A stretch of DNA of 64,000 nucleotides from Clostridia bacterium (lineage in GTDB: Bacteria > Bacillota > Clostridia > Oscillospirales > CAG-272): NCBI GenBank assembly GCA_017502135.1, contig JAFVVP010000005.1, positions 180,811 to 244,810 on the forward strand. The letters run 5' to 3'. The number at the start of each line of letters is the position of its first letter. Position 1 is the stretch's first letter. This document shows positions 1-10,840 of this stretch, in pieces. The notes under the pieces were generated by a model, which did no database searches, was not told the origin of the DNA, and saw nothing but the letters and a program-made list of their open reading frames with translations. A program made the position numbers and the translations under genes.

Positions 1-289
1 CCGGGGTCATCTTAACGTAAGTAACCTTTTCCTGTCCCTCGGCATATACCTCAACGACAGGCTCGTACTGGCAAATACCAATGCATCCGGTCTGCGTTAC
101 AGAAACAGATTCTGTAAGGCCTGCTTCGTTCACAGCCTCCACGAATGCGTTAAGAACGGGACGTGCGCCGGCCGCAATACCGCAGGTTGCCATACCGACA
201 ACAATTCTGGTAGAACCGGAGCCTTTGCGGATCGCGACCTTGTCTTGCATTTTTGCTTTGATCGCCATCAATTCTTCTAAAGACTTCAT
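1..289 (-). CDS. thioredoxin-like [2Fe-2S] ferredoxin of the hydrogenase operon (C-terminus lies beyond the window edge)
   Basis: Not in the ORF track because it runs off the window. Reverse translation from ATG (289-287) reads MKSLEELMAIKAKMQDKVAIRKGSGSTRIVVGMATCGIAAGARPVLNAFVEAV...TQTGCIGICQYEPVVEVY, typical of thioredoxin-fold 2Fe-2S ferredoxins. The + strand ORF 81..293 is its shadow. Confidence 0.75.
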   Translation of the reverse strand, partial: MKSLEELMAIKAKMQDKVAIRKGSGSTRIVVGMATCGIAAGARPVLNAFVEAVNEAGLTESVSVTQTGCIGICQYEPVVEVYAEGQEKVTYVKMTP

Positions 290-321
290 TTGATTGATCC
301 TTTCCTAATTATGTAAATTTA

Positions 322-873
322 TTATTGAATCGCATCATACTGTTCCCGCAGGTTGCCTTCTATCCATGAAAGGATCTCCGGTTCTGCGAGAGATATATCC
401 TCACCGAGGATCTGACGGATTTCCGACGTGTCAAGTGCGACCTCGCCGTTTTCCGTTTTATGAGTGTAAACAAAATCAATTTCGGGTGAACCGTGTATCA
501 ACGTCTTCACCGTATCGACCATATCACCGAGAGGGACGAAATCAATATGATTCCGACCGAACCGAGCAGAAGTGGTCGTACCGTGCTCTGCACTGATAGA
601 TTCGTGAACAGAGTGGATCTGCACTTCCCCGCCGGTCATCTCAGCGAGCATTTTCAGAAACGGAATTCCGAGTCCGACATTTCGCGTTTTTCGCGTCGTA
701 AAAAACGGATTCCCCAATTTCTCAACCTGCTCCGGTGTCATGCCGCAGCCGTTGTCCGAAACAGTGAAGTAAAGCCAATCTCCCTCCTCCGTAAGACTAA
801 CGGAGATTTTGTCAGCCCCCGCACGCACGGAATTCATCGTTATATCGAGTACGTACAGTGAAAACTCAAACAT
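322..873 (-). CDS. stand-alone GHKL (histidine-kinase-like) ATPase domain protein
   Basis: ORF 322..906. HATPase_c-type motifs are present (VSDNGCGM, NVGLGIPF, TGGEV). Start moved to MFEFS (ATG at 873), which has an AGGAAGGA Shine-Dalgarno and an ATGTTTGA overlap with the stop of the upstream PHP gene. Confidence 0.8.
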   Translation of the reverse strand: MFEFSLYVLDITMNSVRAGADKISVSLTEEGDWLYFTVSDNGCGMTPEQVEKLGNPFFTTRKTRNVGLGIPFLKMLAEMTGGEVQIHSVHESISAEHGTTTSARFGRNHIDFVPLGDMVDTVKTLIHGSPEIDFVYTHKTENGEVALDTSEIRQILGEDISLAEPEILSWIEGNLREQYDAIQ

Positions 874-1618
874 AGACAAATCCTTCCTCTCCGCGCAGAT
901 ATGCAATCAACCGATCTGCCACCAATGCTGACGAATATGGCTCGTCGTCGATCACAAAACTATTGTGAGCTTCCGAAATCTTTGAAAGATCGTGTGCATC
1001 AGAAGAAACGACGTGCCTCAGTTTCGAAAGAGACGGAAACTGTGCCGTATACTGCTCTTTCGAATCAGCTGCGTTAAGCTCGTATGCCGTGTACGCCGGT
1101 GCCTCCGGGAACGCACCAAGGACCGAAACGATTCCGTTCGACGTCCGATCAATATGCGCCGGATAAGAGACACCACCGTGTTCCCACGCCATCCTGAAAG
1201 CCTCATCTAACGATACAGCGGTCGCATTAATGAGCAGATCCTCTTCCTCAGCGATAACCCGATCCTCTTCGTCCATCACAAACTGATTGCCGAAGATAAG
1301 CGGTTTATTGCGGATGCGGATTCTTTTCTCAGATACGGCAAGATCAAATTCGGTCGCAGCCGCAAGTGTGGGAAACAGGCAGATAACGTGAATATCTTCC
1401 GACGTGGTCAACTCCATACCCGCAATCGGTATCAGACCGTATGTCTTGGCCGCTTTAAAAAAAGCGGGGCAATTTCGGGTAGTGTTGTGATCCGTCAAAG
1501 CTGCAATCTGCAATCCATTGAGAACAGCCATACCGGCGATGTTGGCAGGTGTTGCTTCGTCGTCACCGCACGGTGAAAGGCAGGAATGTATGTGCAAATC
1601 GTAGAAATACCGATTCAT
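866..1618 (-). CDS. PHP-domain phosphoesterase
   Basis: N-terminus MNRYFYDLHIHSCLSPCGDDEATP...LTDHNT is the PHP (polymerase/histidinol phosphatase) metal-binding signature. ATGA overlap with the upstream DRTGG gene. Confidence 0.85.
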   Translation of the reverse strand: MNRYFYDLHIHSCLSPCGDDEATPANIAGMAVLNGLQIAALTDHNTTRNCPAFFKAAKTYGLIPIAGMELTTSEDIHVICLFPTLAAATEFDLAVSEKRIRIRNKPLIFGNQFVMDEEDRVIAEEEDLLINATAVSLDEAFRMAWEHGGVSYPAHIDRTSNGIVSVLGAFPEAPAYTAYELNAADSKEQYTAQFPSLSKLRHVVSSDAHDLSKISEAHNSFVIDDEPYSSALVADRLIAYLRGEEGFVYV

Positions 1619-1947
1619 AAACCTTTATCAACGGAGCCGATGACACGACATATCTCATACACGCTTAAATCGCTCGAGAGAACTGTGATATTATTTTCTC
1701 GCGCAGCCGCTTCGGCTTCCGGCATGAGTTGCACGCCTTCCGCAAGAATGACAGCAGCGGCTTCCGTCAAGGAAGCAACGGCAACCACGTTCATGTTGTT
1801 CATGATGGTTATCCACAAGTTCCCCGCTTCCACACGGCTCATCGCCCTGCTGAGAAGATCGCCTGCATAGACGCCTTCAAATGAATCGGGGATTTCCCCG
1901 ACAACGGGAAAGAGTGAAAGCTTATCCGTCAGATCAGAAAATAACAT
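1615..1947 (-). CDS. DRTGG domain protein (small, 110 aa)
   Basis: Its size and sequence (..GDLLSRAM..WITIMNNMNVVAVASL..AAVILAEG..) resemble DRTGG domain proteins. GGAGGA SD upstream. Confidence 0.65.
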   Translation of the reverse strand: MLFSDLTDKLSLFPVVGEIPDSFEGVYAGDLLSRAMSRVEAGNLWITIMNNMNVVAVASLTEAAAVILAEGVQLMPEAEAAARENNITVLSSDLSVYEICRVIGSVDKGL

Positions 1948-1961
1948 ACTTTCCTCCGCGC

Positions 1962-3314
1962 TTATTTGGATTCAGCCGTTTTTGTTTGGTTCGCGTTATG
2001 ACGAGGCACAAGGGGCTTCAATCCTTCGAGAATTGCTTTTTCCTCATGCTCTTTCAAATACTCATGAAACAAAGATCGCATGATCACCGTACATTCATCG
2101 GAGTTGGTATCACCTTTGATAATATCCTCCGCGAACGCCATACAGGTAGGAGCACCGCAAGAACCGCAATCGATCCCGGGCAGACTCTTGCAAATAGATT
2201 CGATGTCTCGCATCATCTGCATGGCCTCTTCCCGGTTCTCAGATAACTTTGCACTGGGGGTGTACTGAAGTCCACCTTCAGCCATTACAGTTTCCGGGAT
2301 TTCCTTTTCAGTGGGACGATTGGGAGAAACGGGCAGATAGCGCTTGAGCAACTGAAGGCGCGCCTGTGCAATGTAGGGATTGGCTACCGTCATCGCACCG
2401 CCCACACAGCCGCCACTGCATGCGTTCAGTTCTACGTAATCCAGATTATGAATATCTTCATTATCTATCCGTTCCAGAACGCGGATGCAGTTCTCTATTC
2501 CGTCCGCAGCCAGATAGCGTTCGTTGAAAACAGCAGCCGATTCACCGCCGGTGGATGCCCAGCCGATTCCAACCATACCGGATTCGGTTGTTTCATCCGT
2601 TCCGTTTTCACGCAATTTCTTCATTTCATCGAGAAGAACGAAGTAAACGTCCCTCACCGATACGACGTGATCAATATAATTCTTCTCGCCGGCAAAACCG
2701 TTCTTTACGTAGCTCACTTTCGCCGGACAGGGAGAGATGAAGAAGACACCGATTTCATCCGGTGAAAGTTCCGGATGAGTTTCTAAGGCTTCTTCCTTTG
2801 CCAGCCGCGCCGCGATATCAATCGGCGCCAAAAGCGGTATGACATGTTCGCAAAGGAACGGGAAATTCATACTGATAATGCGCGAGATTGCGGGACAGGC
2901 AGAACTGATAACAGGCTTTACAATTCCGGGCCGGTTAAGATAGAGACGCGTATAAGCGGAAACGATTTCCGCCGCCCGCGCAACCTCAAAAACCGAATCA
3001 AATCCGATTTCCTTGAGACCGCCGAGGATATAGCCGATGTTATCCAGGTTATCAAACTGACCGTACAATGACGGCGCAGGAAGCGCAATGGTGTATTTGT
3101 AGTTGTTCAGGCAATCAAGCGAGTCGTACACGGCTTTTTTTGCTTTGTGCGGACAAACCCGAATGCACTCGCCGCAATCAATGCAGCGGGAGGGGTTAAT
3201 AACGGCACGTCCGTCACGAATGCGAATCGCTTCCGTGGGACAGCGTTTCAAACAAGTGGTACATCCTTTACATTTACTCTCATCGAGAGAAACGGAATGT
3301 TTGTATGTAGCCAT
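1962..3314 (-). CDS. HydS-like [FeFe]-hydrogenase homologue (2x[4Fe-4S] ferredoxin domain, H-cluster domain, C-terminal RnfB-type 4-Cys domain); putative sensor
   Basis: Two CxxCxxCxxxCP motifs (C15-C25, C44-C54). H-cluster motif equivalents are SSACP (aa 137-141), SPCPAK (194-199) and ELNACSGGCVGG (295-306). C-terminal CGSCGAPTC...C motif. No PAS domain. Confidence 0.8.
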   Translation of the reverse strand: MATYKHSVSLDESKCKGCTTCLKRCPTEAIRIRDGRAVINPSRCIDCGECIRVCPHKAKKAVYDSLDCLNNYKYTIALPAPSLYGQFDNLDNIGYILGGLKEIGFDSVFEVARAAEIVSAYTRLYLNRPGIVKPVISSACPAISRIISMNFPFLCEHVIPLLAPIDIAARLAKEEALETHPELSPDEIGVFFISPCPAKVSYVKNGFAGEKNYIDHVVSVRDVYFVLLDEMKKLRENGTDETTESGMVGIGWASTGGESAAVFNERYLAADGIENCIRVLERIDNEDIHNLDYVELNACSGGCVGGAMTVANPYIAQARLQLLKRYLPVSPNRPTEKEIPETVMAEGGLQYTPSAKLSENREEAMQMMRDIESICKSLPGIDCGSCGAPTCMAFAEDIIKGDTNSDECTVIMRSLFHEYLKEHEEKAILEGLKPLVPRHNANQTKTAESK

Positions 3315-3344
3315 AACCGTACCCAGCCTTTCTTCAGCGGGCTA

Positions 3345-3770
3345 TCAGTTCAACTTGATTTTCATCGTTACCGTTGTTCCGACGCCAACCTCAGAGTCAA
3401 TTTGCATAAAGTCGGTATATTTTTTCATGTTGGGAAGTCCCATTCCGGCGCCAAACCCGAGCGAGCGAATGTTATCACAGGCAGTTGAATAGCCTTCCTG
3501 CATAGCCAAAGAAACATCAGGGATACCGGGACCGCGATCTTTAAGAACGATCGTAATCTCATTGTCATCCACTGTAACGTCGGCAGTGCCGCCGTCGGCG
3601 TGGATCACCATGTTGATCTCTCCTTCATACATTGCAATCGAAACACGACGCATGATATCCGGGGAAAAGCCCAACTGCCTCAGTTTCTTTTTGACCACCA
3701 CCGAAGCCTCACCCGCAGAAGAAAAATTTTCTCCGTCTACGTCAAAGTGAAACTTTAAGACCTCACCCAT
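3345..3770 (-). CDS. RsbW/SpoIIAB-like GHKL ATPase (anti-sigma-factor-type Ser/Thr kinase fold)
   Basis: ORF 3345..3827. Motifs ..NMVIHA.., KDRGPGIPD and GFGAGMGLPN fit HATPase_c. Start moved to MGEVLKF (ATG at 3770), giving an ATGGGTGA overlap with the upstream DRTGG gene stop. Confidence 0.75.
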   Translation of the reverse strand: MGEVLKFHFDVDGENFSSAGEASVVVKKKLRQLGFSPDIMRRVSIAMYEGEINMVIHADGGTADVTVDDNEITIVLKDRGPGIPDVSLAMQEGYSTACDNIRSLGFGAGMGLPNMKKYTDFMQIDSEVGVGTTVTMKIKLN

Positions 3771-4122
3771 GAATCTTACCCGCGTTTCCTCGAAGGCCCG
3801 ATGTGTACAAATGCCCACACGCTTCATAGGCGCGCATATCCGACTTCATAAGCACGATCCCGCAAGCTTCTGCAAGCTCAATCATCTCCTCAGTGGGTGC
3901 TTTGCTTCTGACGAAAACGACGCAGACCATGTCCATCATACTGGCGGTTCTGATAACTTGAGGATTAATAAGTCCGGTTATAAGAACCCCCTGATCTTTA
4001 ACGTACGCCAAAACATCGCTCATCATATCACTGCAGCACGCGGAAAAAACATCGTGCTCCAGAGCCTCTTCACCACACAAGAGAGTTGCGTTCAAAAGCT
4101 TTTGGATTTCGCAAATTTTCAT
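3763..4122 (-). CDS. DRTGG domain protein (second copy)
   Basis: ORF 3763..4272. Start moved to MKICEIQKLL (ATG at 4122, AAGGACGGGG SD), because the longer ORF would overlap the NuoE-like gene. The sequence ..DMMSDVLAY..VLITGLINPQVIRTASMMD..VVFVR.. is DRTGG-like. Confidence 0.65.
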   Translation of the reverse strand: MKICEIQKLLNATLLCGEEALEHDVFSACCSDMMSDVLAYVKDQGVLITGLINPQVIRTASMMDMVCVVFVRSKAPTEEMIELAEACGIVLMKSDMRAYEACGHLYTSGLRGNAGKIHG

Positions 4123-4175
4123 AAAGAACCCCGTCCTTTCGCAAAAAATTAATTCGTTATGCGATGCGGGAAAAC

Positions 4176-4673
4176 TTAATTCTGGTATTTTGCAAGAATG
4201 TCTTTCAGCATATCGGGAGTAAGACGTCCGTAAACATCCTCGCCGATCGTCAGAACAGGAGCAAGACCGCAAGCACCGATGCAGCGCGTCGCTTCCAGAC
4301 TGAATTTAAGATCAGGGGTAAGACCGCCGTTTTCGATACCAAGCAGAGATTCCATTTTCTCCATCAGTTTGCCGGCACCCTTAACATAGCAAGCAGTACC
4401 AAGGCAGATCGCTACCGGATACTGGCCCTTAGGGTTGAGCAAGAACTGTGAATAGAAAGTGGCAACACCGAACACCTCGGATACGGGTACGTCCAAACCG
4501 TCAGCAATCATCTGCTGAACTTCAACGGGAAGGTAGCCGTAGATGTCCTGTGCTTTTTGAAGAATCGGCATAAGGGCACCGGCTTCACCTTTGTGCTGTG
4601 CGATCACCGCATCCAGAGCGGTCTTTTGCTCCGGCGTACCGGAGAACGGCACGGAAGTCAGTTTCTTTTTCAT
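4176..4673 (-). CDS. NuoE/HydC-family [2Fe-2S] subunit of an NADH-linked (bifurcating-type) hydrogenase
   Basis: Thioredoxin-like 2Fe-2S motif CLGTACYVKG...CIGACGLAP. AGGAGG SD. First gene of the hydrogenase cluster in this window. Confidence 0.9.
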   Translation of the reverse strand: MKKKLTSVPFSGTPEQKTALDAVIAQHKGEAGALMPILQKAQDIYGYLPVEVQQMIADGLDVPVSEVFGVATFYSQFLLNPKGQYPVAICLGTACYVKGAGKLMEKMESLLGIENGGLTPDLKFSLEATRCIGACGLAPVLTIGEDVYGRLTPDMLKDILAKYQN

Positions 4674-4760
4674 GACTTTTTCCTCCTACATTGTCATAAG
4701 ACAGAATTTCTGGGGATTTGCGTAGCATATGTATTGCCGCTTTGCGGCTTAATGCACTTA

Positions 4761-5600
4761 TTAATTTTCGCAAAACTCTGCTACCGCGTCAGCCGCAGCG
4801 TCAAGGTAATCGTTCTCCATAAGTTCGATGATTCCCTTGTCACAGAGGGACGAGAGTCTCGGATCAAGCGGAACGCGTCCGAGAAGACGGATGCCGTATT
4901 CAGCGCAAACTTCCTCCGCACGGCTTTCACCGAAAACGTGAAGCTCCTTGCCGCAGTCAGGGCACTTCACATATGACATGTTTTCAACAAGACCGATTAC
5001 AGGGATGTTCATGAGTTTCGCCATGTTGAGAGCTTTTTTCACAATCATGGAAACAAGTTCCTGCGGCGTTGTAACGATGATGATACCGTCGAGCGGTAGG
5101 GACTGGAATACTGTCAAGGGTACATCACCGGTGCCGGGGGGCATATCTACGAACATATAATTCACGTCCGTCCAAATAACGTCCGTCCAGAACTGCTTAA
5201 CCGTACCCGCGATTACAGGTCCGCGCCATACAACGGGCCGCGACTCATCTTCGAGAAGGAGGTTCACGGACATCATCTGAATACCGGTTGTCGTGGTAAG
5301 CGGGATAAGTCCGTTTCCGTCGCTCATTACATCACCCTTCGTACCGAAGGCCTTCGGGATAGACGGACCGGTGATATCCGCATCGAGAATAGCAACGCCG
5401 TTATCGCGGCGACGCATTAGAACGGACAGAATAGAGGTAACGATCGATTTACCGACACCGCCTTTTCCGCTTACAATGCCGATCACGTGCTTAACTGTAC
5501 TCTGCGGGTTGAGCTGCTCTTTCTCAATCTCCTGACGAGATGAGCAGTTGGCGGAACACGTAGAACAGTTATGGGTACATTCTTCGTGGTTTTCAGCCAT
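4761..5600 (-). CDS. Mrp/NBP35/ApbC-family Fe-S cluster carrier ATPase
   Basis: Deviant Walker A GKGGVGKS, a Cys-rich N-terminus (CTHNCSTCSANC) and a C-terminal CPDCG motif. Confidence 0.9.
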   Translation of the reverse strand: MAENHEECTHNCSTCSANCSSRQEIEKEQLNPQSTVKHVIGIVSGKGGVGKSIVTSILSVLMRRRDNGVAILDADITGPSIPKAFGTKGDVMSDGNGLIPLTTTTGIQMMSVNLLLEDESRPVVWRGPVIAGTVKQFWTDVIWTDVNYMFVDMPPGTGDVPLTVFQSLPLDGIIIVTTPQELVSMIVKKALNMAKLMNIPVIGLVENMSYVKCPDCGKELHVFGESRAEEVCAEYGIRLLGRVPLDPRLSSLCDKGIIELMENDYLDAAADAVAEFCEN

Positions 5601-5638
5601 AAGAATCCCTCACTTTCGTAATAATTTCAAACATAATC

Positions 5639-5667
5639 ATTATACCGCATTTTTTGTAAGATTACAA
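5639..5667 (-). promoter_or_regulatory. sigma-A-type promoter for the mrp-like gene
   Basis: On the minus strand: TTGTAA (5667-5662), 17 nt spacer, TATAAT (5644-5639). This lies about 35 nt upstream of the GTGAGGGA SD and the ATG. Confidence 0.6.
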
Positions 5668-5759
5668 GAGTTACGGAAAAGATTTTATGTTAAAACAAGC
5701 GAATTTGACAAAATTTTTGCAGATTCAACACTAACAGACTGTAAGTTGTTCGGTAGGTT

Positions 5760-8414
5760 TTAACATTCGCCGTTCGATTCATTTGACCGTGCTCCAAAAA
5801 AGCACTTCCAATACAAAAAACGCGCCAAAGAAAGCATAAGTGCGACCGCCACTCCTGCAAGTGCAGCCATAATGCTCACGGGACGCCACACCGTAACGAC
5901 AGTTATTAACGCAAGAGCGGTATAAATCAGCATAGCCGCATTTACACGAATGTGGCGTATTCTTGCTTGTCCGTGAGTAAAGTACATAGAAAGCGCCAAG
6001 AAGACAGACGAAAGAATCGCGATGATATAAGAAACGGCATGGGGAACCTCACCGGAAGCAATTCGGGAAAGATACATAGTGAAAACACTTTGCGTCACAC
6101 CTGCCATGACGCCGAAAAGTGCATGCAAGAGCATAGTTTTCTTATCGAAAAGAATCTCTCTGTTCATAGGCCCGGATGAACTTAAAGGTGATCTTGAAAA
6201 AGCAAACATCAAAACCGCTGTGAAGTCTAAAATAAGCCCCCACCACAGTGTCTCGGCAGGTGCGTGCATCGGCAAGCCGAGGAAAGCCGCAGACAACATA
6301 AGCGTCATCCTGAAGATCTGCACAGTAAGCAAATATTCGGCGGCAAGACGCATATGAGCAAATGCTGTTTTACACGATGTAACGATACGCAGCGTCTGCT
6401 CGACGGCTGATAAACTCTTTTTCTCAGATTGACAGCCGGTAGAGGCATCCGATGCAAGAAGAAGGCACTGAGGTGTACGATGAAACGGGCGCTCTGCCGC
6501 AACCGCTACCGATACGGAGGGAAACAACTGGATGTCGTAAAGCACACTGCCGATGTAGGCAGTGTTTTCCACGCGCTCTGCGACTGCGCGCAATATTCTC
6601 GCTCGCTCCCTCCTATTTGATACGGAAACCATGATATTTCCCGCCGCATCACCCGCGGAAATTCGTTCGAGATATGACGAAACCTCAAAAGCTGAGTGAA
6701 GCGCCACAGAGTTTGGCGCTAAAACGCCTGCATTGACAGCCAGCATCCGCTCGGCTTCGCTGCCATCTGTAAACACAATGACGCGGATACCGTTTCCCTG
6801 ACAGCACTCAAGTGCCGCTTTCGTTGTCACATCAATCGGAAGGGCAATTGAGAGAAAGCCGACAAGGCACATCTTTGCGTGGAGGACACTGACTTTAGAA
6901 AGATTCGTACAAGGTGAAACGCGACGCGCAACCGCAACGGTACGGAAAGATTGCGTTTCAAAAAAACGTGCCTGCTCCATCAATGAATTTCGCTCCTCAC
7001 TCGTTATTGCACGAGTACTGCCACACGTTACGATTTCAGAGCAGCACGTGAGAACGTCAGAAAGATTGCCGCTCGTATACACAAACGTCTCACCGGAAGC
7101 CGAGGTGAGAATAGTATGGAGCTTTGAAGTTAGTTTTCTTTCGGTTACCGACGGGAGTTTCAATCGCGATTTCGTTTCTGCGTCAAAATCCTCAAATATC
7201 CGAAAAAGCATCAACGAAAGCGGATCCGCCGAAGGATTACCGTCCGTGTAGACTGGATGAAGGGTACCATAACGGCAAAGAAGAGCAAGCGCACAAATCG
7301 ATGCTGCCTCCTCGCTGACACCAATTGCCTTCGCGTCAAGCCAAGCGCCGTTGGCAAAAGCAGCCTCGAGTCGGATATTACCCGATTCAAAGAGATGCGG
7401 ATCACCCACGACAAGGCATTGCGTTTTTGCGAAACATTCCATCGAATCGGCTGAGCGCAGCACAACAGAGCCGTCACTTTCAGAGCGAAGTTTGTGCATG
7501 GATACCGCAAGAATGATAGCGGCAATCACACAAAGGAACTCGCTCATTGATGCTACAGCCAGAGAGAGTGCGGATAAAAACAACGTATCTATCGTGAGAG
7601 TGCTGTGCCCGGCAAGAAGCCCGCCGAGAGTGATGAGAAGGACAACACCGATCATCAAAAGAGAGATGCTCCGGCACCACGACGAAAGAGAGACGAGCAC
7701 GGAAAGATCCTCTCCGGCGGGGATGGTGATGTGCCCCCTCTTTGCGAAAATGTACGTATCCTCACCGGTAGCGAACGCAACGCCCCGTCCGGATCCGCCG
7801 AGTACGGTTGATCCTGCAAAGAGAATATTTGAGCGAGTCTCGCAAGAAATCTCCTCTGACATAACGGTTGAAGCAGTTTTATTTACAGCACCTCGGTTGC
7901 TCGTAACACCGGCCTCAGATACTGTGAGATCGCCAGAAACCAAACGAACATCTGCTGTAACGGGATCCCCCGGAGAAAACACCAGAATGTCTCCAGGCAC
8001 GACGGCATCAGACGGCAACAGAATCGCTTTGCCGTTTCTTATTACCGTTGCGCGCGGAAGATTTTCCTGAGCGGCGTTTTCGAACATTCTCTGTGCCGCA
8101 ATAAATATGAGAGTCCGTACAGAAGCAGATACCGCCAAAAGGACAAAGAGGACGAGTGCTTCTCTTCCCCTTTGGAAAACCGCTGAAACAGCCGCGGTGA
8201 TAATGAGCAATATGGCGGACAGATCCAAAAATTCACCGCGCGCCGTGTGCGCGGCAGAAGCGCGTTTAACGCACCAGATAGCATTCTGACCGCACTTTCG
8301 TCTTCGCGCGGCCGCTTCTTTGCGCGACAACCCCGTATGCATATCAGCACGAAGAGCGGAACAAACCGAGTCCGCGTCCATGGCGTGCCATACGTTTGGA
8401 TTTTTCTTTTTCAT
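5760..8414 (-). CDS. P-type (P2/SERCA-like) ATPase homologue with degenerate catalytic motifs; probable pseudo-enzyme or membrane scaffold
   Basis: Cation_ATPase_N-like N-terminus (HAMDADSVCSALRADMHTGLSRKEAAARRRKCGQNAI) and multiple TM segments. The signatures read TSNR for TGES (aa 171-174), SEFLC for PEGLP, DPHLF for DKTGT (aa 338-342), VFTDGS for ITGD, and IGSVLYD for GDGVND. Confidence 0.8.
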   Translation of the reverse strand: MKKKNPNVWHAMDADSVCSALRADMHTGLSRKEAAARRRKCGQNAIWCVKRASAAHTARGEFLDLSAILLIITAAVSAVFQRGREALVLFVLLAVSASVRTLIFIAAQRMFENAAQENLPRATVIRNGKAILLPSDAVVPGDILVFSPGDPVTADVRLVSGDLTVSEAGVTSNRGAVNKTASTVMSEEISCETRSNILFAGSTVLGGSGRGVAFATGEDTYIFAKRGHITIPAGEDLSVLVSLSSWCRSISLLMIGVVLLITLGGLLAGHSTLTIDTLFLSALSLAVASMSEFLCVIAAIILAVSMHKLRSESDGSVVLRSADSMECFAKTQCLVVGDPHLFESGNIRLEAAFANGAWLDAKAIGVSEEAASICALALLCRYGTLHPVYTDGNPSADPLSLMLFRIFEDFDAETKSRLKLPSVTERKLTSKLHTILTSASGETFVYTSGNLSDVLTCCSEIVTCGSTRAITSEERNSLMEQARFFETQSFRTVAVARRVSPCTNLSKVSVLHAKMCLVGFLSIALPIDVTTKAALECCQGNGIRVIVFTDGSEAERMLAVNAGVLAPNSVALHSAFEVSSYLERISAGDAAGNIMVSVSNRRERARILRAVAERVENTAYIGSVLYDIQLFPSVSVAVAAERPFHRTPQCLLLASDASTGCQSEKKSLSAVEQTLRIVTSCKTAFAHMRLAAEYLLTVQIFRMTLMLSAAFLGLPMHAPAETLWWGLILDFTAVLMFAFSRSPLSSSGPMNREILFDKKTMLLHALFGVMAGVTQSVFTMYLSRIASGEVPHAVSYIIAILSSVFLALSMYFTHGQARIRHIRVNAAMLIYTALALITVVTVWRPVSIMAALAGVAVALMLSLARFLYWKCFFGARSNESNGEC

Positions 8415-8422
8415 AACACTTC

Positions 8423-10759
8423 TCAGAGTGCGCGGACGGTAATCTCTCCGTCCGTTGCATCCACATCTACTGAAGAAATTTTGCCGCCGGAAGTGATGAT
8501 TTCGGTAGCAATTTTATCCTCCACTTCCGTCTGAATGAAACGGCGCATATTGCGCGCGCCGTACTTGGCAGAGAACGATTTATCCGCAATACACCGAACG
8601 GCATCTTCCGTCCAGGTAAGACGGATATTCTTCTCCCTAAGCGCACCGGCACTATCAGTAAGCATTAATGCCGCAATAGAAACAAAATCGTTTTTGTCAA
8701 GTGAGCGGAATGTGATTATCTCGTCCACACGGTTCAAGAACTCAGGACGCAAAAATTCTGCCAAAGCTCTTGCTGTGCGCTCTTTCACCTGCGCATCCGG
8801 AGCGTCCGAAAATCCGGCGGGCGCTGACCGAGCTGCTGAGCCTGCATTCGTTGTCATAACGATGACCGTGTTCTCAAAGCTGACCGTCTTCCCCTGCGCA
8901 TCGGTAACTCTTCCATCATCAAGGATTTGAAGAAGGATGTTCATAACGTCCGGATGCGCCTTCTCAATCTCGTCAAACAAAACGACGGAATAGGGACGGC
9001 GGCGGATCTTTTCCGTCAGCTGTCCCGCATCGTCATAGCCGACGTATCCGGGCGGCGCACCGATGATGCGCGATACGGAAAATTTATCCATAAATTCACT
9101 CATGTCGAGACGAATCAAGGTTTCAGGTGCCGAGAACATATCCTCCGCCAAAACTTTCACAAGTTCCGTTTTACCGACGCCCGTAGGCCCGGCAAAGATG
9201 AAAGAAACCGGTTTTCTCTTGAAGGAAACCCCGGCACGGTTTCTGCGAATTGCGCGAGAAACGGCAGACACAGCCTCTCCTTGACCGATAATACGTGCAG
9301 AAAGGCGTTCCTCCAGTTTTGAAAGACGCTCAAACTCATCCTCAGTAATCGTGGAGGCAGGAATACCCGTCCAGATTTCGATAACGTCCGCAAGATCAGA
9401 AACGTGCATTTCGATCTTATCACATTCCGTTTGAAGGAACGCGTCACGCTTCTCCATACGGAGAAGTTCAGCCTTTCCGTCTGCCAGTTTTTTGTACGTT
9501 GCTTCATCGGGTTCTTCCGACGCGGCCTTAGATTCCAACGTTTCAAGATCTGTTTTGAGAGCCGCGCGACGGTCTGCAAGCGCCCTCTTTTCGTTGAGAA
9601 AATCGGACGAGAGCGAAATGTGCGACGCCGCTTCGTCAATAAGATCGATGGCTTTATCCGGAAGATAGCGGTCGGTGATATACCGCTCGCTCAGAGTAAC
9701 AGCTGCGTGCAAAACCGAGTCGGGAATATGGATTCCGTGATATTCTTCGTAGTAATGCTTTATTCCCGCCAAAATCTCTTCAGTATCCGCCATATTGGGC
9801 TCATTGACCATGACAGGTTGGAAGCGACGTTCCAATGCCGTGTCTTTTTCGATATGCTTGCGGTATTCGGTGAGCGTAGTCGCACCGATGATTTGGATTT
9901 CGCCACGGGAAAGCGCCGGCTTGAGGATATTGGCGGCGTTCATGCTTCCCTCCGCGTCACCTGCACCGACGATGCTGTGCACCTCGTCGATCACGAGGAT
10001 TACGTTGCCGGCAGTTTTAACGTCGCCGAGAAGGCCGAGCATGCGGGATTCAAACTGCCCGCGGAACTGCGTTCCTGCGACCAAAGCCGTTAAATCAACC
10101 AGGCAGATCTGTGCATCACGCAGCCGGTACGGGACGTTCCCTGCCGCAACCTTTTGTGCCAGCGCCTCGGCGATGGCGGTTTTACCCACACCGGGCTCAC
10201 CTATAAGACAAGGATTGTTTTTCTGTCGGCGGCAAAGGATCTGAATAACGCGATCAAGCTCACGCGTACGGCCGATCACCGCGTCAAGAAGTCCGTTCTT
10301 TGCTCGCTCGGTAAGATTCTGGCAGTACGTGTTCAGATACTTGTATTCTTTCTTCTTCTCTCCGTTTTCTTTCTTTTTGGGTGGCTTCTTCTCGTTCTTT
10401 ATAGAGCCGAGCTGCATCATTTGGATAGGACCGAATAACTTTCCGAAATCAATGGCCGGAGCGCGGCTTTCACTTGGCAATGCTTGTTCACCCTCTGCAG
10501 CCTCTTCGTCCGCAGAAGACTCCGCGCCGCTCTCATCCGCATCTTCAGCGGCAGACTCCATAAGCGTTTCCATCTCCGTATTCATGCGTTCAAGATCTTC
10601 ATCTGATATACCCATTTTCTTAATAATATCATTTACGGGTGCAATTCCCAGTTCTTTTGCGCACTGGATACAAATCCCCTCTTGCTTTTGCTGACCGTTT
10701 TCAATGTGAGCCACAAAAACAACTGCTATTCTTTTTTTGCATCTAGAGCAAATAACCAT
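8423..10759 (-). CDS. ClpC/ClpA-type double-AAA+ unfoldase with an N-terminal zinc ribbon in place of the Clp_N domain
   Basis: ORF 8423..10804 has a TTG start. I prefer ATG at 10759 (MVICSRCKK...). Walker A motifs GEPGVGKT and GPTGVGKT, a middle coiled coil, and an AGF tripeptide at the ClpP-loop position. N-terminus CSRCKK...ICIQCAKEL is followed by acidic and then basic low-complexity stretches. Confidence 0.85.
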   Translation of the reverse strand: MVICSRCKKRIAVVFVAHIENGQQKQEGICIQCAKELGIAPVNDIIKKMGISDEDLERMNTEMETLMESAAEDADESGAESSADEEAAEGEQALPSESRAPAIDFGKLFGPIQMMQLGSIKNEKKPPKKKENGEKKKEYKYLNTYCQNLTERAKNGLLDAVIGRTRELDRVIQILCRRQKNNPCLIGEPGVGKTAIAEALAQKVAAGNVPYRLRDAQICLVDLTALVAGTQFRGQFESRMLGLLGDVKTAGNVILVIDEVHSIVGAGDAEGSMNAANILKPALSRGEIQIIGATTLTEYRKHIEKDTALERRFQPVMVNEPNMADTEEILAGIKHYYEEYHGIHIPDSVLHAAVTLSERYITDRYLPDKAIDLIDEAASHISLSSDFLNEKRALADRRAALKTDLETLESKAASEEPDEATYKKLADGKAELLRMEKRDAFLQTECDKIEMHVSDLADVIEIWTGIPASTITEDEFERLSKLEERLSARIIGQGEAVSAVSRAIRRNRAGVSFKRKPVSFIFAGPTGVGKTELVKVLAEDMFSAPETLIRLDMSEFMDKFSVSRIIGAPPGYVGYDDAGQLTEKIRRRPYSVVLFDEIEKAHPDVMNILLQILDDGRVTDAQGKTVSFENTVIVMTTNAGSAARSAPAGFSDAPDAQVKERTARALAEFLRPEFLNRVDEIITFRSLDKNDFVSIAALMLTDSAGALREKNIRLTWTEDAVRCIADKSFSAKYGARNMRRFIQTEVEDKIATEIITSGGKISSVDVDATDGEITVRAL

Positions 10760-10840
10760 ATACTTATAACCTGCATCCGCGGTAACGCGGTTCCTTTCAA
10801 TCAAACGTCAAAGCGAACCGAGCGCCAAAAAGCGCCGATA

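Follow-up and report, generated by a model that had tools for sequence, protein, structure and literature searches.

A candidate H2-responsive regulatory module of five genes inserted in an electron-bifurcating [FeFe]-hydrogenase operon of a Clostridia bacterium

We analysed a 64,000-nucleotide stretch of the genome of a Clostridia bacterium (contig JAFVVP010000005.1, positions 180,811 to 244,810; hereafter the window), whose first 4,673 positions carry eight minus-strand genes around a hydrogenase-like protein, HydS. Judged from its genes, the region is an electron-bifurcating [FeFe]-hydrogenase operon (hydC, GHKL2, hydD, hydB, hydA) into which a module of five genes (DRTGG1, GHKL1, HydS, DRTGG2, PHP) has been inserted. 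The best reading of these five genes, which we hold with moderate confidence, is that they form an H2-responsive kinase/phosphoesterase regulatory module. Gene content, domain identities, conserved catalytic motifs, synteny and natural gene fusions were observed directly and carry this proposal. The genes, in the order of transcription and followed by one neighbour, are these (aa, amino acids):

4176-4673, minus strand: hydC, NuoE-like, thioredoxin-like [2Fe-2S] subunit of the bifurcating hydrogenase core; 165 aa; Pfam 2Fe-2S_thioredx, 170 bits
3763-4122, minus strand: DRTGG1, DRTGG-fold protein, first gene of the candidate sensor module; 119 aa; Pfam DRTGG, 26.3 bits
3345-3770, minus strand: GHKL1, SpoIIAB/RsbW-like GHKL ATPase, putative Ser/Thr kinase; 141 aa; Pfam HATPase_c and HATPase_c_2
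1962-3314, minus strand: HydS, group D (M2e) putative sensory [FeFe]-hydrogenase; 450 aa; Fe_hyd_lg_C, 102 bits, two Fer4 and a C-terminal PF04060 FeS domain
1615-1947, minus strand: DRTGG2, second DRTGG protein; 110 aa; Pfam DRTGG, 27.3 bits
866-1618, minus strand: PHP, PHP-family metal-dependent phosphoesterase; 250 aa; Pfam PHP, 38 bits
322-873, minus strand: GHKL2, Bergerat-fold ATPase, member of the core operon; 183 aa; HATPase_c, 63 bits, and HATPase_c_3
1-289, minus strand: hydD, thioredoxin-like [2Fe-2S] ferredoxin; 123 aa, of which the window holds the first 96; 2Fe-2S_thioredx, 24.1 bits, slightly under the cut-off
4761-5600, minus strand: Mrp/NBP35-type Fe-S cluster carrier ATPase, context rather than part of the cassette; Pfam ParA/NUBPL, 297 bits

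All eight open reading frames (ORFs) of the cassette were found in the 64-kb window sequence at the coordinates proposed in an earlier sequence-only reading, with overlaps of 4-8 nt and gaps of 14-53 nt. From hydC onwards, the junctions are a 53-nt gap (hydC/DRTGG1), an 8-nt overlap (DRTGG1/GHKL1), gaps of 30 nt (GHKL1/HydS) and 14 nt (HydS/DRTGG2), overlaps of 4 nt (DRTGG2/PHP) and 8 nt (PHP/GHKL2) and a 32-nt gap (GHKL2/hydD). Pfam supports all of the domain calls made in that reading: the ferredoxin falls just short of its cut-off, being truncated by the window edge, and both DRTGG proteins lie just above theirs (25.2 bits), DRTGG1 being backed by a structural model as well. The same reading had placed the cassette inside a bifurcating-type operon and pointed to the left of coordinate 1 for NuoF-like and HydA genes. 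A public 284-kb contig identical to the window (L001) runs past that coordinate, and both genes are there. The full 123-aa ferredoxin gene hydD (L001 13026-13397) is immediately followed by HydB, a NuoF-like protein of 597 aa with Complex1_51K and NADH_4Fe-4S domains, and HydA, of 578 aa with Fe_hyd_lg_C and Fe_hyd_SSU domains. The gene order over the window and L001 is hydC, DRTGG1, GHKL1, HydS, DRTGG2, PHP, GHKL2, hydD, hydB, hydA, and HydC, HydB and HydA, the last with a complete H-domain, lie in one cluster, as in group A3 bifurcating HydABC hydrogenases. HydC has the usual four cysteines (90, 95, 131 and 135), finds its best NCBIfam matches in HoxE/NuoE and keeps its position across loci. 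HydD has only three (36, 69 and 73), all conserved in 34 diverse homologues; the fourth ligand of its cluster may come from a partner protein or be a residue other than cysteine.

HydS, the central protein, begins with a 2x[4Fe-4S] domain (two Fer4 motifs), and the cluster cysteines of its H-domain are C140, C196, C299 and C303. The proton-relay cysteine (CpI C299) is replaced by Ala139 in the local sequence SSA139-C140-P, and Ser194 stands at the position of CpI Met353 (IS194-P-C196); both residues are invariant in an alignment of 15 close homologues (at least 69% identity). The C-terminal motif C383-x2-C386-x4-C391-x16-C408 coincides with a PF04060 match at 378-409, and the protein ends 42 residues past the last cluster cysteine. 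All cluster cysteines are invariant in 34 diverse relatives, and 430 clusters (50% identity) match the family at an expect value (E) of 1e-30 or below; no solved structure of a close relative was found. The sequence-only reading had taken the sensor for a group C enzyme. That assignment (M2f) was rejected, as the C-terminal PAS domain is absent: none of 14 Pfam matches at E<=0.01 is a PAS domain. Because the M2e features are present, including the C-terminal Cx2Cx4Cx16C motif as defined by Land et al. (PMC8163306), and PAS is missing, HydS is assigned instead to group D (M2e), a putative sensory class, with every sequence feature described in that paper.

The only characterised member of group D is TamHydS of Thermoanaerobacter mathranii, which has a low turnover and sensor-like properties (PMC8163306). 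Compared by published description (PMC8163306, PMC13104023), it shares with the window protein the 2x[4Fe-4S] domain, the H-domain, the C-terminal Cx2Cx4Cx16C motif, the missing proton-relay cysteine, the serine at the Met353 position and the lack of PAS. Its gene likewise lies upstream of a trimeric bifurcating HydABC and beside a histidine-kinase-like ATPase. It differs in having Leu where HydS has Asn, at the Met497 position, and two DRTGG proteins and a PHP enzyme are not described there. A genome survey from 2013 reported that all Thermoanaerobacter strains have, upstream of their bifurcating hydrogenase, one gene for a histidine kinase and another whose architecture is group D-like (PMC3608648). 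Group D is still listed as functionally undefined in a 2024 survey (PMC11216029). A study of TamHydS from April 2026 calls the identification of group D interaction partners critical and holds that the C-terminal cluster is not the redox signal (PMC13104023).

Gene order points to candidates for such partners. Two sets of loci, about 160 in all, were compared. The close set came from a one-genome-per-species scan with the HydS alignment and holds 80 loci at 56-87% HydS identity, from uncultured Clostridia of the Oscillospiraceae/Acutalibacteraceae/Christensenellaceae type living in guts and rumens. The diverse set holds 80 metagenome loci at ~30-45% identity, from the contexts of distant members and a scan seeded with a 35%-identical one; such members were obtained through an exhaustive 50%-cluster search, searches with the window proteins having given close relatives only. 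With loci whose contigs allowed scoring as denominators, GHKL1 is present in 75/75 close and 71/73 diverse loci, DRTGG1 lies immediately upstream of it in 70/70 and 63/66, DRTGG2 follows directly downstream of HydS in 78/78 and 66/73, and PHP is found in 75/75 and 55/65. The module is thereby present in every scorable close relative and persists down to ~30% HydS identity, including in Candidatus Eisenbacteria. A NuoF-type enzyme was nearby in 26/26 close loci, all with HydA, and in 13 of the 19 diverse loci with both flanks of at least 8 kb. The recurrence of the gene neighbourhood, already stated in the sequence-only reading, was borne out, with the same order in 80 species-level genomes, and the linkage of the cassette to the HydS-like gene proved strong and specific.

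That reading had treated the genes as one cassette of seven. What we found is a mobile five-gene module inside a hydC-GHKL2-hydD-hydB-hydA core, because three close loci place the module ahead of an intact core (DRTGG1-GHKL1-HydS-DRTGG2-PHP-hydC-GHKL2-hydD-hydB-hydA). By gene order, the sensor module is DRTGG1, GHKL1, HydS, DRTGG2 and PHP, and the core is hydC, GHKL2, hydD, hydB and the catalytic subunit. Written with d1 and d2 for the DRTGG genes, k1 and k2 for the GHKL genes, S for HydS, P for PHP and A-D for hydA-hydD, the module stands before the core as d1 k1 S d2 P k2 C D B A or d1 k1 S d2 P C k2 D B A, inside it as in the window, divergent from it in four loci (L159, L164, L168, L172), or alone beside housekeeping genes such as tRNA synthetases (L134, L137). 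GHKL2 travels either with PHP or between hydC and hydD. Such mobility as a unit fits a regulator. Long "PHP" and "GHKL2" ORFs in L087, L088 and L100-L104 were discarded as spurious 5' extensions from ORF calling.

The enzyme beside the module is not always a hydrogenase. A molybdopterin, formate-dehydrogenase-like protein replaces HydA as the NuoE/NuoF partner in several loci, L087 (Candidatus Eisenbacteria), L091, L095 and L158. The coordinates of such formate-dehydrogenase (FDH)-type loci are 7026-10730 in L087, 7359-9552 in L091 and 655-5483 in L089, the last having a minimal DRTGG-GHKL-HydS trio after an FDH-like/GltD-like cluster; GltD-like domains or genes occur in some FDH-type loci bearing the HydS module. 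An H2 sensor beside a non-hydrogenase bifurcating enzyme was unexpected. The linkage to hydrogenase genes proposed earlier was therefore right for HydABC but too narrow, as it extends to NuoEF-type enzymes in general, including formate-dehydrogenase-like ones. In two further loci, L129 (13022-15851) and L145 (13244-16625), the genes that come after the module encode a HisKA histidine kinase of PAS or Cache type and a REC-sigma54-HTH_8 regulator, and in L129 the gene of a [NiFe]-hydrogenase maturation protease (HycI) lies directly upstream of the module.

Natural fusions join the same proteins. DRTGG1 is fused to GHKL1 in five loci (L095, L118, L122, L130, L147), and the HATPase_c domain of GHKL1 to HydS in P0279, whose contig ends at the fusion gene. 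DRTGG precedes HydS in one chain in P0269, P0323 and L086, and DRTGG2 sits on the C-terminus of HydS in P0260, P0264, P0332, P0381, P0382 and L085. PHP is fused to GHKL2 (L124, L135), GHKL2 to HydD (L170) and a CBS domain to GHKL1 (L091). Pfam confirms PHP::HATPase_c, CBS::HATPase_c and, weakly, one DRTGG::HATPase_c; the remaining fusions were recognised with custom family profiles at 90-170 bits per domain. Taken together, the fusions link the proteins in two sets, DRTGG-GHKL1-HydS-DRTGG and PHP-GHKL2-HydD, and they are the strongest evidence implying physical cooperation among the cassette proteins. What looked like HydA::HydS and HydB::FDH fusions was rejected as cross-matches of related-domain profiles within one protein, and a 617-aa GHKL2-YkuD ORF in L153 was set aside as a possible assembly artefact. 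At L091 122-3406, three DRTGG paralogues and the CBS-CBS::GHKL1 fusion surround HydS, which suggests that adenine-nucleotide sensing was added to the module in that lineage.

GHKL1 has the features expected of a regulatory kinase. Its conserved elements are Glu49/Asn53 (N box), D78xGxG (G1), GFGAGMGLPN (G2) and an EGYSTA lid motif, and these motifs are conserved in 77 diverse sequences; it thus retains the key residues of GHKL serine kinases, Glu as the catalytic base and Asn for Mg binding, together with their G1/G2 boxes. It matches the NCBIfam model spoIIAB over its full length at 60 bits, below the model cut-off, and its profile matches the SpoIIAB structures 1TIL/1L0O/1TH8 at E ~1e-9 (SpoIIAB residues 19-136) and RsbW at 5e-3. 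We regard it as a putative SpoIIAB-like Ser/Thr kinase.

Its neighbour DRTGG1 has the conserved motifs SD(M/L)MSDVLA, LTGLxNxQ(V/I)RTA and VFVRxKxP. The AlphaFold2 model of DRTGG1 (mean predicted local distance difference test score, pLDDT, 84.8) superposes on the DRTGG protein AF1212 (PDB 2IOJ) with a template-modelling (TM) score of 0.83 and a root-mean-square deviation (rmsd) of 1.8 A. The next matches are the DRTGG domain of CBS-pyrophosphatase (3L2B/3L31) and the N-terminal domain of HPr kinase, and no STAS protein is among the 50 structural matches listed. The model thereby confirms a DRTGG fold (PF07085), not a STAS fold. The alignments used for structure prediction were built from database matches 70-97% identical to the window proteins. 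DRTGG2 passes the PF07085 threshold by sequence (27.3 vs 25.2 bits), the fold having been modelled for DRTGG1 only, and its conserved motifs are G.Y..DLLS and W.T...N..AVA. Both proteins carry the invariant motif D-(L/M)-(L/M)-S as well as a T..N motif, and these are kept across the diverse set. In DRTGG1, the most conserved motif falls in the sole low-confidence block of the model (residues 31-40, pLDDT 62), as expected for an interaction or modification site.

PHP retains the full set of metal ligands of its family (H9xH11, D43-H44, E69, H77, H155, D207xH209), invariant in 32 sequences and kept in 62 diverse ones. An invariant C13-L-S-P-C17 directly follows the HxH metal motif, at the position of a His or Asp ligand in other PHP enzymes, and may form a thiol-ligated or redox-sensitive metal site. 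Profile searches gave weak matches (E 1e-4 to 1e-2) to the pAp phosphatase Cv1693 (2YB1), EndoQ, TM0559 and RNase AM, spanning mainly the N-terminal 80-100 residues, and no match to CpsB/YwqE-type protein phosphatases. GHKL2 combines a Bergerat fold with a C-terminal alpha/beta subdomain; its motif I (LDIxxNSxxAGA) is MutL-like and its PFFTTR..GLG motif histidine-kinase-like. Its profile matches KinB/ZraS CA domains (1e-10) and MutL/PMS2, and in NCBIfam, too, its likeness is to MutL and the catalytic domains of histidine kinases. The full-length neighbours of its AlphaFold2 model (pLDDT 87.7) are PMS2/MutL N-terminal domains and TopoVI-B, with TMq only 0.5-0.6, and histidine-kinase CA domains align with the first ~105 columns only, at lower rmsd. 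Of the two kinase-like ATPases of the sequence-only reading, GHKL1 is indeed SpoIIAB-like, whereas GHKL2 resembles a hybrid and may not be a kinase.

On this basis we propose the following mechanism. HydS, in complex with GHKL1 and DRTGG1, would bind H2 at its H-cluster and change conformation. The state of HydS would gate an ATP-dependent step in which a DRTGG protein is either phosphorylated or bound, probably at the invariant serine of the D-(L/M)-(L/M)-S motif. PHP would reverse the DRTGG step, so that DRTGG2 and PHP would make up an antagonistic or reset arm, and GHKL2 and the HydD ferredoxin would link PHP to the NuoE/NuoF-type enzyme. The output would tune the activity or synthesis of the bifurcating enzyme to the H2 level; the sequence-only reading had suggested that the hydrogenase complex itself may be the target. 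In this genome it would act post-translationally or in trans, and elsewhere an adjacent sigma-54 two-component system could carry it.

There is precedent for such an arrangement. Group C HydS genes have genes for a Ser/Thr kinase and a PP2C phosphatase as neighbours, and regulation is backed by genetic evidence (PMC5707799). Examples are HydS of Ruminococcus albus and hfsABCD of Thermoanaerobacterium saccharolyticum, in which the kinase/phosphatase genes are regulatory by genetics (PMC5707799). Common to these and the present module is a hydrogenase-like H2 sensor (HydS/HfsB) beside a kinase and a phosphatase, next to or regulating fermentative hydrogen metabolism. Group C, however, has the PAS domain, a Ser/Thr kinase and PP2C, whereas here PAS is absent, the phosphoesterase is of the PHP type and two DRTGG proteins are added. 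According to the summary in PMC5707799, HoxBC/HoxJ/HoxA of Ralstonia eutropha similarly couples a low-activity hydrogenase serving as H2 sensor to an ATP-dependent kinase, and the modules beside a histidine kinase and an NtrC-type sigma-54 activator (L129, L145) resemble HoxJ/HoxA as portrayed there. The [NiFe] sensor of that system belongs to an unrelated metalloenzyme class, and the HisKA/DHp and receiver domains are absent from the window genes: Pfam detects such two-component domains in none of them, only in module neighbours in L129 and L145.

Several points weigh against the H2-responsive module as proposed. Each of its biochemical steps, from H2 gating and the activity of the kinase to the phospho-acceptor, the substrate of PHP and the regulated target, is our inference. 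The operon encodes no output domain; as the sequence-only reading had stated, the cassette proteins have no DNA-binding, sigma or receiver domains by Pfam and NCBIfam. We know of no DRTGG domain that acts as a phospho-acceptor, and the nearest relatives of PHP with known function act on nucleotides or nucleic acids, not on proteins. GHKL2 has no DHp/HisKA domain; its assignment as an HK-CA/MutL-like hybrid is ambiguous, since the matches and model make it as MutL-like as kinase-like. The covalent DRTGG1::GHKL1 fusion fits a stable complex better than a released partner. H2 does not reduce TamHydS's C-terminal cluster (PMC13104023). Operons that lack HydS can likewise hold GHKL2 and HydD (PMC9304861; Acetobacterium woodii gene order, bioRxiv 10.1101/2020.01.23.904417), which argues that part of the cassette has a sensor-independent role.

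The resemblance to partner switching, noted in the sequence-only reading, holds in part. As in SpoIIAB-SpoIIAA-SpoIIE and RsbW-RsbV-RsbU, a SpoIIAB-like GHKL gene directly follows a ~115-aa alpha/beta partner with a stop/start overlap, and the gene of an antagonistic phosphoesterase is nearby. Here, however, the partners are DRTGG-fold rather than STAS proteins, the phosphoesterase is PHP rather than PP2C, and some genomes have the kinase covalently joined to either its partner or the sensor; no PP2C or sigma domain was found by Pfam or NCBIfam in the nine proteins examined. Because of the DRTGG fold and the PHP phosphoesterase, the module is not a canonical partner-switching system. It might nevertheless be a new machine of that kind, in which HydS would control GHKL1, DRTGG proteins would stand in for STAS and PHP for PP2C, and NuoEF-type hydrogenases and FDHs alike would be gated post-translationally through GHKL2 and HydD. 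We put this forward tentatively and consider it somewhat unlikely.

The extra genes could instead serve the assembly, maturation or repair of NuoEF-type iron-sulfur/flavin enzymes. In that role the GHKL proteins would serve as chaperone-like clamps and the DRTGG proteins as scaffolds, PHP would be a hydrolase, HydD would donate clusters or electrons, and HydS would be an alternative low-activity hydrogenase module feeding the complex. Schut et al. described "hisK" and "hydD" between hydC and hydB and reported them outside the purified NiFe-HydABCSL holoenzyme (PMC9304861), and the order in A. woodii is hydC-hydE-hydD-hydB-hydA1 (bioRxiv 10.1101/2020.01.23.904417). Like the present operon, the Bfu/HydABC operons of Acetomicrobium mobile (PMC9304861) and the A. 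woodii operon hold a GHKL2-type gene and a ferredoxin in the hydC-hydB interval, the equivalence of "hisK"/"hydD" or hydE/hydD to GHKL2/hydD being by position and domain type only; here GHKL2 and hydD are also linked to PHP and the HydS module by adjacency and fusions. The occurrence of both proteins in HydS-less bifurcating operons and their absence from the holoenzyme speak for an assembly role, as do the full-length structural neighbours of GHKL2 (MutL/PMS2, TopoVI-B and Hsp90-type ATPases), the three cysteines of HydD, expected of a cluster shared or transferred at an interface, and the Mrp Fe-S carrier gene directly upstream of the operon. Yet GHKL1 is specifically kin to a regulatory kinase, SpoIIAB; HydS is without the residues by which catalytic enzymes transfer protons, and TamHydS works slowly (PMC8163306). 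The module also stands alone by housekeeping genes far from NuoEF enzymes (L134, L137, L143, L144), is divergent from the core in four loci and lies beside sigma-54 two-component systems in others, and the CBS::GHKL1 fusion points to signal integration. For the cassette as a whole we judge an assembly role unlikely; it is plausible above all for GHKL2 and HydD, which are also found without HydS.

In our estimate it is quite unlikely that the module handles a nucleotide signal or a small phosphorylated metabolite (for example energy charge, pAp or a dinucleotide), sensing or degrading it in place of a protein phospho-relay, with the DRTGG and GHKL proteins as ligand-binding regulators and PHP as a signal-degrading phosphoesterase. 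In favour of this, the structural matches of the DRTGG1 model include the N-terminal domain of HPr kinase and the DRTGG domain of CBS-pyrophosphatase (3L2B/3L31), a nucleotide-regulated enzyme, the closest characterised relatives of PHP are 3',5'-nucleoside bisphosphate phosphatase, RNase AM and EndoQ, and GHKL1 is fused to adenine-nucleotide-binding CBS domains in L091. In CBS-pyrophosphatases, however, the nucleotide is bound by the CBS domains and not by the DRTGG domain, and the PHP matches are the weak, mainly N-terminal ones given above. A nucleotide signal would also leave unexplained the invariant H-cluster protein at the centre of the module, fused to both DRTGG and GHKL1. Incidental adjacency of unrelated small genes inside the hydrogenase operon of this lineage, for which nothing speaks but the marginal Pfam scores of the two DRTGG proteins, has a negligible probability, synteny and fusions having refuted it: ~150 loci keep the order, down to ~30% HydS identity and across phyla, and multiple independent fusions join the members.

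Turning to the surroundings, the Mrp-type carrier gene ends 87 nt upstream of hydC, with no promoter-like or terminator-like sites in between, and is possibly the first gene of the transcription unit; it lies upstream of hydC in only 9/80 close loci. The carrier has a Cys-rich stretch at its N-terminus, CTHNCSTCSANC, and matches NCBIfam MrpORP at 324 bits, below the 450-bit cut-off. The sole promoter-like matches lie upstream of this gene (5711-5639, minus strand). Because promoter and terminator match counts were no higher than in shuffled sequence, the operon boundaries are drawn from spacing only. A search for Rex operators with TTGTNAANNNNTTNACAA (2 mismatches) gave six matches in the window, none near the operon and not above shuffles, and a scan of window positions 1-9000 against Rfam found no RNA families.

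Two genes further upstream encode an ATPase-like and an AAA+ protein. The P-type ATPase-like protein at 5760-8414 (minus strand, 884 aa) keeps TGE and is without DKTGT (VVGDPHLF at this site), TGD and GDGxND. It matches Pfam Cation_ATPase_N, E1-E2_ATPase and Cation_ATPase, the HAD hydrolase domain not being among the precomputed matches, and may be a degenerate, non-catalytic ATPase. In the ClpB/ClpC-like double AAA+ protein at 8423-10804 (minus strand), an acidic low-complexity linker stands ahead of the first AAA domain, and the N-terminal part holds a CxxC...CxxC segment that resembles a zinc ribbon. The first 12.8 kb carry long ORFs on the minus strand only. GC skew is below zero in all 2-kb bins except 34-36 kb (0.000), and cumulative skew drops steadily over positions 1-64000; the window probably lies within a single replichore, with co-oriented genes.

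Parts of this picture were already known, namely a kinase-like ATPase beside group D HydS, hisK/hydD in the core operon and a hydrogenase-derived H2 sensor with a kinase and a phosphatase. Full-text literature searches found no work tying DRTGG proteins to hydrogenases, SpoIIAB-like kinases or PHP enzymes and no paper on the biochemistry of the cassette, in keeping with the sequence-only statement that they have no assigned biochemistry. Nor did we find descriptions of the five-gene module, of DRTGG and PHP as its conserved members, of the fusion network, or of the association with formate-dehydrogenase-type bifurcating enzymes and sigma-54 systems. From conserved order and fusions, DRTGG1, GHKL1, DRTGG2 and PHP are the best candidates yet for the signalling partners of group D HydS, and GHKL2 and HydD are candidates for the link to the enzyme.

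Electron-bifurcating hydrogenases set the H2 and redox balance of fermenting gut, rumen and sediment bacteria, and for H2 sensing by [FeFe]-type sensors synteny and fusions now give a testable wiring diagram. If the H2-responsive module is real, it would represent a new combination of protein folds in bacterial kinase/phosphatase signalling and would offer a handle for engineering H2, formate or ethanol yields.

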